From NCBI RefSeq assembly GCF_000027125.1, contig NC_017626.1: 64,000 nucleotides of DNA. One strand, 5' to 3'. The notes under the pieces are model-generated. The model ran no database searches, was not told the origin of the DNA, and worked only from the letters and a program-made list of their open reading frames with translations. Below are positions 29,586 to 51,014 of this stretch, piece by piece. A program made the translations under genes and the position numbers. The stretch's first letter is position 1. Every line of letters begins with the position of its first letter. Source of the DNA: Escherichia coli 042 (GTDB lineage Bacteria > Pseudomonadota > Gammaproteobacteria > Enterobacterales > Enterobacteriaceae).

Positions 29586-29660
29586 ATGTCAGGTTGCCGG
29601 ATGCGGCGTAAACGCCTTATCCGGCATACATAGACCTGATAAGCGAAGCGCATCAGGCAA
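29586..29660. repeat. REP (repetitive extragenic palindrome) units between nhoA and yddE
   Basis: GCCGGATGCGGCGTAAACGCCTTATCCGGC … GCGCATCAGGC palindromic units. Confidence 0.7.
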
Positions 29661-47364: not shown

Positions 47365-48249
47365 ATGGCTATGGAAACGCAGGACATTATCAAAAGGTCC
47401 GCAACTAACTCCATCACGCCGCCTTCTCAGGTGCGTGATTACAAAGCAGAAGTCGCGAAACTTATCGACGTTTCCACCTGTATCGGTTGTAAAGCCTGTC
47501 AGGTGGCGTGTTCGGAGTGGAACGACATCCGTGATGAAGTGGGGCACTGCATCGGGGTTTACGATAACCCCGCCGATCTGAGCGCCAAGTCCTGGACGGT
47601 GATGCGCTTTAGCGAAACCGAACAGAACGGCAAGCTGGAGTGGCTGATCCGTAAAGACGGCTGTATGCACTGTGAAGATCCGGGCTGCCTGAAGGCGTGC
47701 CCGTCTGCTGGTGCAATCATTCAGTACGCTAACGGGATTGTCGATTTCCAGTCGGAAAACTGCATCGGCTGTGGTTACTGCATTGCCGGGTGTCCGTTTA
47801 ATATTCCGCGCCTCAACAAAGAGGATAACCGGGTATATAAATGCACGCTCTGCGTCGATCGCGTCAGCGTCGGCCAGGAACCGGCTTGTGTGAAAACCTG
47901 TCCGACCGGGGCTATCCACTTCGGCACCAAGAAGGAGATGCTGGAGCTGGCGGAACAGCGCGTGGCGAAACTGAAAGCGCGTGGTTACGAACATGCTGGC
48001 GTCTACAACCCGGAAGGGGTCGGTGGTACGCACGTTATGTACGTGCTGCATCACGCCGATCAGCCGGAGCTGTATCACGGTCTGCCGAAAGATCCGAAGA
48101 TCGACACCTCGGTAAGCCTGTGGAAAGGCGCGCTGAAACCGCTGGCAGCGGCTGGCTTTATTGCCACTTTTGCCGGGTTGATTTTCCACTACATCGGTAT
48201 TGGCCCGAATAAGGAAGTGGACGATGACGAGGAGGATCATCATGAGTAA
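47365..48249 (+). CDS. fdnH: Formate dehydrogenase-N beta subunit (4Fe-4S)
   Basis: 294 aa with four CxxCxxCxxxCP clusters and C-terminal TM anchor. Confidence 0.9.
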
Positions 48250-48895
48250 GTCGAAAATGATTGTGCGCACCAAATTTATTGATCGCGCCTGTCACTGGAC
48301 CGTGGTGATTTGCTTCTTCCTGGTGGCGCTGTCCGGGATTTCGTTCTTCTTCCCGACGCTGCAATGGCTGACGCAAACCTTCGGTACGCCGCAGATGGGA
48401 CGCATTTTGCACCCGTTCTTCGGCATTGCGATTTTCGTCGCGCTGATGTTTATGTTTGTGCGTTTTGTGCATCACAACATCCCGGATAAGAAAGATATTC
48501 CGTGGCTGTTGAACATTGTCGAAGTATTAAAAGGCAATGAGCACAAAGTGGCGGATGTCGGTAAGTACAACGCCGGGCAAAAGATGATGTTCTGGTCGAT
48601 CATGAGCATGATTTTCGTGCTGCTGGTGACCGGGGTGATTATCTGGCGTCCGTACTTTGCGCAGTACTTCCCGATACAGGTTGTCCGTTATAGCCTGCTG
48701 ATCCACGCGGCTGCGGGTATCATCCTGATCCACGCCATCCTGATCCATATGTATATGGCATTCTGGGTGAAAGGATCGATTAAAGGGATGATCGAAGGAA
48801 AGGTGAGCCGTCGCTGGGCGAAGAAACACCATCCACGCTGGTATCGTGAAATCGAGAAGGCAGAAGCGAAAAAAGAGAGTGAAGAAGGGATATAA
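48242..48895 (+). CDS. fdnI: Formate dehydrogenase-N gamma subunit (cytochrome b556)
   Basis: 217 aa from ATG at 48242 overlapping the fdnH stop; 4 TM. Confidence 0.9.
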
Positions 48896-48949
48896 TCTCT
48901 TTTGAACTTTAAGCTGAAAATGGCGCTGTAAAAGGCGTCATTTTCATAT

Positions 48950-49080
48950 TGTAGACAACGTAGGCTTTGTTCATGCCGGATGCGGCGTGACGCCTTATCC
49001 GGCCTACAAACCCTTCAAATCCAATAGATTGCAGTGAACTTGTAGGCCTGATAAGCGTAGCGCATCAGGCAATGTTGCGT
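48950..49080. repeat. REP element cluster downstream of fdnI
   Basis: Inverted copies GCCGGATGCGGCGTGACGCCTTATCCGGCCTACAA … GTAGGCCTGATAAGCGTAGCGCATCAGGC. Confidence 0.7.
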
Positions 49081-49122
49081 TTGTCATCAGTTCTAAATGG
49101 CGCTTTATAAAGTGCCATTTTT

Positions 49123-49407
49123 TTATTGCGTAACCAGACGGCGTAATCGCGACACATCCACCGTTTTTTCAGCCTCTGCCAGACTCCAGGCGTTTTGCAG
49201 ATTCAGCCACATTTGCGGCGAACTGCCGATCACCACGGAAAGTTTAATTGCCATTTCTGGCGTCAAAGCTGCTTTTCCGGTCAGCAATCGGCTTGCCGTT
49301 GAGGGCGCAATTTCCATTGCTCTGGCAAACTCGCGCAGGCTGACATTAAGTTCGTCCAGTGATTCCTGAATAATGTCCCCCGGGCGGGGATGATTGGCCA
49401 TTTTCAT
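49123..49407 (-). CDS. yddM: HigA-like antitoxin (XRE-family HTH)
   Basis: 94 aa with HTH ([22 protein letters not shown]); immediately downstream of and 1-nt overlapping a RelE/HigB-like ORF. Confidence 0.8.
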
Positions 49408-49685
49408 CAGTGATAGTCCTCGTAATCCAGTATGTATGCATCGCCATTGACGAATTCAAATGTGATTCGCCAGTTGCCCGAGACAGATATCGCCCAAATT
49501 CCATCGCGATCGCCGCTTAACGGGTGTAGTCGGTAACCGGGCATATCGATATCAGCAAGACAGCTTGCCGCATCAATCACAGCAAGTCGATGGCGTAATC
49601 GTTTGACTTGCGTCGGTATAACGCCGGAGGTTTTGCCGAGAAGAAACAAGTCACGCAATCCCTTGTGTCTGAAATTCATTATCAT
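49407..49685 (-). CDS. HigB-like toxin (RelE/ParE superfamily mRNA interferase)
   Basis: 92 aa small basic protein upstream of the HTH antitoxin; toxin-first order typical of HigBA; ATGA start/stop overlap. Confidence 0.65.
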
Positions 49686-49870
49686 CTCTTCATCCTTGTT
49701 CCCTCGAAAGGAACACTATCACTATTGTTCCGTGCAGCGCAACAAATTTCGCTACGTTTTCGCGAATTGTGAGGGGAAAGATGGGGGAGGAAAAGAAGAA
49801 GAGTGAAATTGCGGAAAGCGTCTCGCAAAACAGGCTGCGACCCGAACATGGCAGTCGCAGCAAAGGCTTC

Positions 49871-50881
49871 TTAGCGGCGGAAATCAATCACCATACGGCC
49901 ACGGATTTTGCCTTCTTCCATCTCAGTAAAGATGGTGTTGATGTCCGCTAACGGACGCAGGGCGACTTTCGGCACCACTTTGCCTTCGGCGGCAAACTGG
50001 AAGGCTTCGGTGAGATCCTGGCGCGTGCCGACCAGCGAACCGACCACTTCAATACCATCCAGCACCAGCCGTGGGATATCCAGGCTCATAGACTCCGGCG
50101 GCAGACCGACTGCCACAACACGCCCGCCTGCACGAACGGCATCGACCGCAGAGTTAAACGCAGCTTTAGCTACCGCTGTCACCACCGCAGCGTGTGCACC
50201 ACCGGTTTTCTCCTGCACAATTTTGGCGGCGTCTTCGGTGCGTGAGTTAATCGCTAAATCTGCACCCATTTCGGTTGCCAGTTTCAACTGCTCATCATTG
50301 ACATCAATGGCGATCACTTTGGCGTTAAAGACATTCTTCGCGTATTGCAGGGCGAGGTTACCCAGACCGCCAAGACCGTAGATAGCAATCCACTGCCCTG
50401 GACGAATTTTTGACAGCTTAACGGCTTTGTAGGTGGTGACCCCCGCACAGGTAATGCTGCTGGCCGCCGCCGAGTCCAGACCATCTGGCACTTTTACCGC
50501 GTAATCGGCGACCACGATGCACTCTTCCGCCATCCCGCCATCAACGCTGTATCCGGCATTTTTAACTGAACGGCAGAGCGTTTCGTTACCACTGTTACAG
50601 TATTCGCAATGACCGCATCCTTCGTAAAACCACGCCACGCTGGCACGATCGCCTGGTTTTAATGAGGTGACACCTGGGCCAACTTCTGCCACCACACCGA
50701 TGCCTTCATGGCCCAGAATTACGCCGGTTTTGTCACCAAAATCGCCATTCTTAACATGAAGATCGGTGTGACATACACCACAACACTCCATTTTCAGCAG
50801 GGCTTCGCCATGTTTCAGTGAGCGCAGTGTTTTATCCGTAACGTCAACATGATGATCCTTCGTAACAACTGCAGCCTTCAT
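49871..50881 (-). CDS. adhP: Zn-dependent alcohol dehydrogenase, propanol-preferring
   Basis: 336 aa from ATG at 50881; MDR motifs GHEGIG and GLGGLG. Confidence 0.9.
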
Positions 50882-51014
50882 AGTTCCTCCTTTTCGGATG
50901 ATGTTCTGCATAGCAGGTGAGGCAAATGAGATTTATTCGCCACTACCCAGTATGGATGAGATCTGAAAAAGGGAGAGGGAAATTGCCCGGTAGCCTTCAC
51001 TACCGGGCGCAGGC

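Follow-up and report, generated by a model that had tools for sequence, protein, structure and literature searches.

The spacer between the convergent genes fdnI and yddM of Escherichia coli 042 (contig NC_017626.1), within a 64,000-nt stretch of DNA referred to here as the window, contains one complete BIME-1 (bacterial interspersed mosaic element) bracketed by two copies of a terminator palindrome. We consider it likely that a mobile BIME-1 became inserted in the fdnI/yddM terminator and duplicated its palindrome, that exchange between the copies later gave the two-unit array of E. coli K-12, and that the insertion would have altered transcript ends at this site. The anatomy of the spacer, the duplication, its polymorphism among strains, and its generality at other loci were read directly from genome sequences. 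A sequence-only reading of this DNA had pointed to inverted repetitive extragenic palindromic (REP) units past fdnI, described as a cluster, and to a stem-loop with a run of seven T residues (T7) at about 49093-49128. Both were found, the REP units at 48974-49007 on the plus strand and 49040-49071 on the minus strand and the stem-loop at 49095-49124; the REP units do not, however, form a loose cluster but belong to the single BIME-1 at 48945-49094.

The element occupies the entire 150 bp between the hairpin copies and consists of a left flank, a Y-type REP unit, a spacer, a Z1-type REP unit, and a right flank; the whole folds end to end (-51.9 kcal/mol). The left end, or A motif (CATATTGTAGACAACGTAGGCTTTGTTCA, 48945-48973, plus strand), is shared with the copies at yqjF-yqjG and fepA-entD and with more than 20 others, the consensus at other loci being CAGATTGTTGACAAAGTGCGC. 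It is followed by the Y unit, which has an internal palindrome, lies 5 edits from the Y consensus and gives a sub-threshold match to the Rfam family naRNA4; by a 32-nt L spacer (49008-49039) that has homologs in other copies; and by the Z1 unit, which lies 4 edits from the Z1 consensus and forms inverted repeats with the Y unit such that their GTAG/CTAC tails face one another. The L spacer carries a predicted, degenerate site for integration host factor (IHF), ATCCAATAGATTG, with 2 mismatches to WATCAANNNNTTR and only 1 in the fepA-entD and yqjF copies. The right end, or B motif (ATGTTGCGTTTGTCATCAGTTCT, 49072-49094, plus strand), is an imperfect inverted repeat of the left end, TC^T stands at both ends, each on its own strand, and the right-flank pattern GGCANTNTTGCGTTTGNCATCAG retrieved BIME-1 copies in Escherichia (including E. 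albertii and E. whittamii) and in Pseudocitrobacter. The Y and Z1 consensus sequences used for matching are those that we take to be standard, and we take the motif names A and B to be those of Gilson et al. 1991. Matches to the same patterns in Saccharibacteria, Rhodobacteraceae, and Alphaproteobacteria contigs were rejected as chance.

Judged by its inverted, tail-to-tail Y and Z1 units, and by its conserved outer flanks and a length in the range of about 140-150 bp (150 bp in this copy; 150-153 bp in most of the copies whose two ends are intact), the element is a BIME-1; it is extragenic, and isolates either have it whole or lack it altogether. These properties agree with the published definition of a single Y and a single Z1 unit flanking a long, often IHF-binding L linker in an element of about 140 bp (Ton-Hoang 2012). 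The K-12 counterpart is listed as REP120 (1552072-1552168, 'convergent, fdnI/yddM') in the supplement of a preprint (Harris et al. 2026). The feature flagged by the sequence-only reading is thus already catalogued, and as a REP/BIME beside a canonical terminator it is of little weight in itself. The only other REP pair in the window, at 29593-29659, consists of a Y-like unit (plus strand) directly adjoining a Z1-like unit (minus strand) with no L spacer.

The hairpins at the two ends of the element were recovered by a repeat finder as direct repeats of 34 nt, 79% identical and 177 bp apart, and the duplicated segment comprises 27 nt, at 48918-48944 in hairpin A and 49095-49121 in hairpin B. 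Hairpin A, the fdnI-proximal copy (48915-48946, plus strand), was found by inverted and direct repeat searches and by folding; it begins 20 nt past the fdnI stop codon, outside the interval, starting at 48950, that the sequence-only reading had covered. Its folding energy is -18.1 kcal/mol on the plus strand (z = -5.4) and -11.5 kcal/mol on the minus strand, and 7 of the 10 nt in its tail, UUUUCAUAUU, are U. Hairpin B with its T7 run, the yddM-proximal copy (49095-49124, plus strand), was located by a terminator scan and by folding (-14.8 kcal/mol on the plus strand, z = -4.4; -10.2 kcal/mol on the minus strand) and is conserved in K-12, CFT073, and E. albertii. The stem arms AAATGGCGCTTTA and TAAAGTGCCATTT lie at 49095-49120 and the T7 run at 49118-49124. 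On the fdn strand hairpin B has an 11-pair stem, a 4-nt loop, and a tail (TTTTTTTATT) in which 9 of 10 nt are U, a G+C-rich stem-loop followed by a U-tract that is, as predicted from these elements, a canonical intrinsic terminator; it was the sole plus-strand terminator-like site called by the scan in 48700-49900.

Spacer alleles were read directly in a survey of 5,426 complete E. coli genomes, of which 3,024 carried at least one unit of hairpin plus BIME-1. Allele shares were taken from an evenly spaced sample of 60 rows, of which roughly 10 had two units, 23 had one, and 26 were empty. The empty allele (approximately 44%; ST131, O104:H4, O103, O111, and Z0117EC0013) has a spacer of 49-50 bp with one perfect hairpin, GAAAATGGCGCTTTAAGAAGCGCCATTTTTTT, and no REP. 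The one-unit allele (approximately 39%; the window, CFT073, and O157:H7) has a spacer of 225-227 bp, and the two-unit allele of K-12 (approximately 17%) has a spacer of 406 bp with three hairpins and two BIME-1 copies. The empty-allele hairpin, a perfect stem of 12-13 bp between an A-tract and a U-tract, is of nearly equal stability on the two strands (-17.3 and -16.2 kcal/mol), and the value of -16.2 kcal/mol on the yddM strand together with 6 U in 10 gives it the form of a bidirectional terminator.

The same layout was seen elsewhere. At three further loci, yqjF-yqjG, yfeX-pbp4b, and ymdF-rutG, the empty allele has one hairpin and the filled allele has a hairpin on each side of the BIME-1, and at every locus read the duplicated segment was symmetric about the center of the palindrome. 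In strain E200086 two BIME-1 copies are each enclosed by a terminator hairpin specific to yqjF-yqjG (AACGAGGAGAAACGCTCCTCGTTT). K-12 shows a single hairpin at this locus, and filled alleles occur in only 89 genomes, which points to a gain. For yfeX-pbp4b, the empty allele has one hairpin, K-12 has one unit, and Escherichia sp. MOD1-EC7003 has at least two. For ymdF-rutG, ST131 has one hairpin and two E. coli lineages carry the element in opposite orientations at that same hairpin, with the same 22-24 bp duplicated in both; the two inserts match at 131 of 152 positions when one is reverse complemented and at 108 of 152 in the forward direction. This combination argues for independent insertions, each duplicating the palindrome, since other explanations are hard to construct, and on the basis of these sequences the ymdF-rutG hairpin is a putative insertion hot spot. 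In a broader flank test, the 45 nt to the left of the element were aligned with the 45 nt to its right for 29 BIME-1 copies with both ends intact, from approximately 22 distinct loci, with 798 mismatched pairs as the control (null mean 11.2, sd 3.1). The scores of 14 of the 29 copies exceeded the 99th percentile of the control; the repeats in those copies are 16-30 nt long, abut the element ends to the base, and correspond to a different local hairpin at each locus. Some other copies have abutting repeats of just 6-7 nt.

Several variants were encountered in the course of these comparisons. In REL606 (E. coli B) one BIME-1 unit is present and hairpin A has been lost by a 33-bp deletion (GAACTTT|CATATTG), so the distal T7 hairpin alone is left to terminate fdnGHI. 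In CFT073 the first bases of the left end of the element are replaced, such that hairpin A is perfect and is followed by seven T residues (CATTTTTTTGTAGAC); this change may be a secondary restoration of a strong fdnI-proximal terminator. In strain STO_Bone2 an insertion sequence, IS200C, lies exactly between the T run and the ATTGCG of the empty allele (equivalent to approximately 49124/49125 of the window), an insertion found in 2 of 30 evenly spaced rows of the genome listing, and the fdnI-yddM terminator is therefore a target of an IS200/IS605-family element as well. A tandem array in MOD1-EC7003 has the right flank of one BIME-1 fused to the tail of the left flank of the next unit with no hairpin between them, which from its sequence appears to be a different route to tandem copies. 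A 184-bp contig assigned to Bacillus coahuilensis (NZ_ABFU01000103.1) matches the K-12 two-unit spacer over the B motif, the middle hairpin, and the start of the next unit and is most likely E. coli contamination of the Bacillus assembly. For the zapB-side copy the population search was uninformative, as ordinary E. coli differ on the left flank. Recent recombination between hairpins A and B was dismissed as the source of the empty allele: any chimera with A on the left and B on the right mismatches that allele at 3-4 of about 30 positions.

We propose that the ancestral spacer would have been a single bidirectional intrinsic terminator like that of the empty allele, into which a 150-bp, non-autonomous, quasi-palindromic BIME-1 of the RIP/RIB class would have integrated. 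If both strands were cut symmetrically at the hairpin foot, guided by its structure, the stagger would equal the palindrome length, and the length of the duplication would therefore vary with the target. At fdnI-yddM such an integration would copy the whole 27-bp palindrome and leave the element bracketed by hairpins A and B, and unequal exchange between hairpin copies would then yield the two-unit array of K-12. The mobilizing enzyme was probably TnpA_REP, the REP-associated tyrosine transposase (RAYT), which cleaves at C^T. As a general rule, we suggest tentatively, and with more doubt than confidence that it is both real and previously undescribed, that BIME-1 prefers intrinsic-terminator palindromes and duplicates the whole palindrome over a length of 6-30 bp that is set by the structure of the target and not by the enzyme. 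If this is true, the same hairpin could be hit repeatedly and in either orientation, the duplicated hairpins would seed tandem arrays of terminator plus BIME-1, and the location of REP/BIME sequences at the 3' ends of transcription units would be explained.

A number of points weigh against this origin. About half of the 29 BIME-1 copies lack a long flanking repeat, the fepA-entD copy, for example, having no convincing one. The type strain of E. albertii carries the one-unit allele, so the filled state is either old or exchanged; the empty E. coli allele could accordingly be a polymorphism of ancestral age, have arisen by excision, or have been brought in by recombination, and the polarity of the change at fdnI-yddM is unproven. 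We know of no enzyme shown to create palindrome-length duplications. Transposition of the IS200/IS605 type, catalyzed by HUH enzymes, gives no target duplication (Ton-Hoang 2012; Nunvar 2010), and published models for TnpA_REP, including that of Ton-Hoang 2012, have integration at pre-existing REP/BIME targets and leave duplication unmentioned. The simple terminator scan called only hairpin B on the plus strand; hairpin A was not called and draws no positive support from it. That scan also misses the perfect hairpin of the empty allele; in our opinion both omissions are an artifact, because its maximal-stem rule absorbs the first T residues, and the hairpins were instead compared by their core stems and 10-nt tails. 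The operon fdnGHI is anaerobic and nitrate-induced and is not expected to be expressed in LB or M63-glucose cultures. Those were the media of the curated K-12 Term-seq data, in which no 3' end was present in the spacer (1551900-1552499, both strands, three conditions; Adams et al. 2021, PMC7815308). With fdnGHI presumably silent in these media, and with K-12 also lacking the toxin gene described below, the fdn strand was not fairly probed by this data set.

By the core-stem comparison, the empty-allele hairpin has a value of -11.7 kcal/mol on each strand, with 9 U in the 10-nt tail on the fdn strand. On the fdn strand the core stems of hairpins A and B amount to -9.0 and -9.8 kcal/mol, respectively. 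On the yddM strand hairpin A has a core stem of -2.4 kcal/mol with 6 U in 10, and hairpin B, which contains an A.C mismatch, has a core-stem value of -6.3 kcal/mol, its tail (UUUAGAACUG) containing 4 U among 10 nt; hairpin B is thus not predicted to serve yddM as a bidirectional terminator. All four stem substitutions among the hairpin copies of the window, K-12, CFT073, and E. albertii are transitions for which the fdn-strand RNA keeps a G.U pair and the yddM-strand RNA acquires A.C, a pattern that is no more than suggestive of selection on the fdn strand alone (approximately p = 0.06 on a coin-flip expectation).

The predicted consequence for transcripts is that the hairpin proximal to each gene would lose its original U-tract to element sequence and the distal copy would keep it. 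Transcripts of fdnGHI would end partly at hairpin A, with the remainder ending at hairpin B and its T7 run. Those of yddM or higB-yddM would meet only weakened hairpins, enter the BIME, and be ended by Rho within it or beyond, and the REP stem-loops would act as generic barriers to 3' exonucleases and as Rho-dependent attenuators. In K-12, minus-strand transcription ends at a bicyclomycin-sensitive, Rho-dependent region at 1551885, antisense within fdnI (Adams et al. 2021, PMC7815308), and a region of in vitro Rho termination (1551823/45-1552131) overlaps REP120 (Harris et al. 2026 supplement). These published data fit leaky termination on the minus strand. No entry for these genes or coordinates was present in the SMRT-Cappable-seq data. 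A strong K-12 Term-seq 3' end at 1552652 (approximately 49377 of the window, minus strand) lies 31 nt into the yddM open reading frame (ORF) at the foot of a hairpin, CCCCGCCCGGGGG, and could be either a processed end of the adhP 3' untranslated region (UTR) or premature termination of yddM.

The sequence-only reading had further noted an overlap of the T7 hairpin with the last codons of yddM and had suggested that it may couple fdnGHI termination to the stability of the convergent toxin-antitoxin transcript. On such a model, termination of fdnGHI at this hairpin would set where the higB-yddM mRNA ends and thereby how stable it is, or the influence would run the other way. Hairpin B does adjoin the yddM stop codon, and its palindrome could be used on both strands; once a BIME is in place, transcripts that run to the distal hairpins would share approximately 200 nt of complementarity, and REPs between convergent genes correlate genome-wide with higher expression of both (Harris et al. 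2026). The contact with yddM nevertheless amounts to 2 nt of the T run (49123-49124), which are complementary to the TA that begins the TAA stop codon; no part of the stem reaches into the gene, and neither the stem nor the T run contains a sense codon. The minus-strand hairpin is weak, no K-12 Term-seq end maps to it, transcripts that read through on the minus strand are terminated by Rho inside fdnI, in the antisense direction, and terminal REPs have no global effect on mRNA half-life (Harris et al. 2026). The variation in unit number between 0, 1, and 2, with approximately 44% of genomes having no REP here, and the absence of the toxin from about 76% of genomes argue against a conserved coupled circuit. 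Coupling of this kind is therefore unsupported and somewhat disfavored, and we regard the shared-hairpin control as very improbable. It is comparably improbable that the hairpin pair arose by local tandem duplication or slippage, with the REP element landing beside the terminator and the hairpin being copied later by unequal crossing-over or gene conversion. Tandem arrays of hairpin plus BIME clearly do grow by exchange, as seen in the two units of K-12 and in the arrays at yqjF-yqjG and a further locus (L039), and the divergence of the fdnI-yddM copies would suit an event that was old and distinct. Against this history, even one-unit alleles at many unrelated loci possess the two copies, in exact contact with the element ends, the independent opposite insertions at ymdF-rutG carry the same duplicated segment, and the symmetry of that segment about the palindrome center holds at all loci read.

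A third possibility, compatible with an insertion origin, is that BIME-1 is retained here mainly for a host function and that the duplicated hairpins are incidental. The L spacers of BIME-1 often bind IHF, and REPs are reported in the literature to bind gyrase and Pol I, to stabilize upstream mRNA, and to attenuate transcription; moreover, the in vitro Rho region overlaps REP120 and the element has been kept from E. albertii to E. coli. These properties would suit a topological insulator that binds IHF or gyrase and separates convergent operons, an mRNA 3' stabilizer, or a Rho-dependent attenuator, each of which we consider rather doubtful as the function here. The absence of the element from so large a share of E. 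coli and the more degenerate IHF-like site of this copy, with its 2 mismatches, make retention for such a role rather unlikely overall, and we favor insertion into the terminator with duplication of its palindrome.

Compared with known systems, the closest likeness is to BIME-1 itself (RIP/RIB), with which the element shares tail-to-tail Y and Z1 units, an L spacer of 32 nt containing a putative IHF-like site, conserved flanks, a length of about 150 bp, an extragenic position at the 3' ends of convergent units, and presence or absence among isolates. BIME-1 has been described as occurring in single copies (Ton-Hoang 2012), whereas fdnI-yddM and two other loci have tandem arrays of hairpin plus BIME-1. 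The empty allele is a textbook case of the bidirectional terminators between convergent genes of Ju et al. 2019, as these are cited by Harris et al. 2026; in the window, by contrast, the palindrome is split in two diverged copies that both favor the fdn strand. Miniature inverted-repeat transposable elements (MITEs) are likewise small elements without coding capacity, quasi-palindromic and ending in imperfect inverted repeats, and they too show flanking target repeats and strain polymorphism. Unlike in MITEs, the flanking repeat here spans 6-30 bp and tracks the target palindrome instead of having a fixed length, and no DDE transposase partner is known; with terminal inverted repeats but no target-site duplication of fixed length, the element does not appear to be a MITE. 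REPs have been said to lack MITE signatures (Delihas 2011). In the REPIN/RAYT (TnpA_REP) system and the 'peel and paste' transposition of IS200/IS605, a REP doublet is the presumed replicating unit, the DNA is a single-stranded hairpin, and an HUH Y1 enzyme cleaves at C^T, to which the TC^T on each strand at the BIME-1 ends corresponds. The lack of target duplication in IS200/IS605 and the choice of REP/BIME, not terminator hairpins, as targets in the TnpA_REP models set these systems apart.

The spacer itself is 227 bp long (48896-49122) and lies between the stop codons of the convergent genes. The fdnI gene, last of fdnGHI and encoding the gamma subunit of formate dehydrogenase-N, occupies 48242-48895 on the plus strand, with its TAA stop at 48893-48895; it was assigned from the ORF list and the RefSeq annotation of identical or orthologous sequence, and its start was set from the 654-bp length of K-12 fdnI. 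On the minus strand lie yddM (49123-49407), a 94-aa HigA-family antitoxin or helix-turn-helix (HTH) regulator assigned from its ORF, Pfam HTH_3 (7.6e-10), and the RefSeq annotation; an ORF for a 92-aa HigB-like toxin of the RelE/ParE family (49407-49685; Pfam PF05015, HigB-like_toxin, 64 bits); and adhP (49871-50911). The toxin ORF is intact in the window and overlaps the yddM start by 1 nt, so a RelE-fold toxin gene lies 5' of, and overlaps, an HTH antitoxin gene, an order by which the pair is a predicted type II HigB-HigA operon; RefSeq annotates it as RelE/ParE toxin and HigA-family antitoxin. The convergent toxin-antitoxin neighbor named in the sequence-only reading is therefore present in this strain. 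The toxin region occurs in approximately 1,311 of the 5,426 complete genomes; K-12 has no toxin gene, and yddM is an orphan antitoxin-like gene there. In strain Z0117EC0013 the toxin gene is frameshifted. Positions 48700-49700 are 100% identical to E. coli strain 118UI. Within 48700-49900 a promoter scan found none and an Rfam scan found no RNA family that reached its gathering score, the sub-threshold matches being naRNA4 and ES036 only, both REP-derived. The K-12 RefSeq record has no repeat feature annotated in the fdnI-yddM spacer.

The targeting and duplication of terminator palindromes by BIME-1, with repeated use of sites and growth of tandem terminator-BIME arrays, had no mention in the REP/BIME literature examined, a search that left outside it the older primary work of Bachellier 1997, Boccard & Prentki 1993, Gilson 1991, and Wilde 2001. 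Bachellier et al. 1997 are reported to have described 'excisions of a whole BIME-1'. The mechanism by which REP/BIME sequences disseminate is still called unknown (Corneloup et al. 2021; Ton-Hoang et al. 2012). The fdnI-yddM spacer and the three further loci provide matched empty, one-unit, and multi-unit alleles with BIME-1 inside a duplicated terminator, and they offer clues to its spread in the palindrome-length target duplication, the use of the same site in both orientations, and the TC^T ends on each strand. Insertion would rewire the 3' ends of the adjoining genes by weakening the proximal terminators and lengthening the overlap of the convergent 3' UTRs, and the natural strains with 0, 1, and 2 units form a ready series for studying the effects of REPs on termination and mRNA decay. 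If it is indeed undescribed, the pattern would be a concrete mechanistic constraint on how REP/BIME sequences spread.

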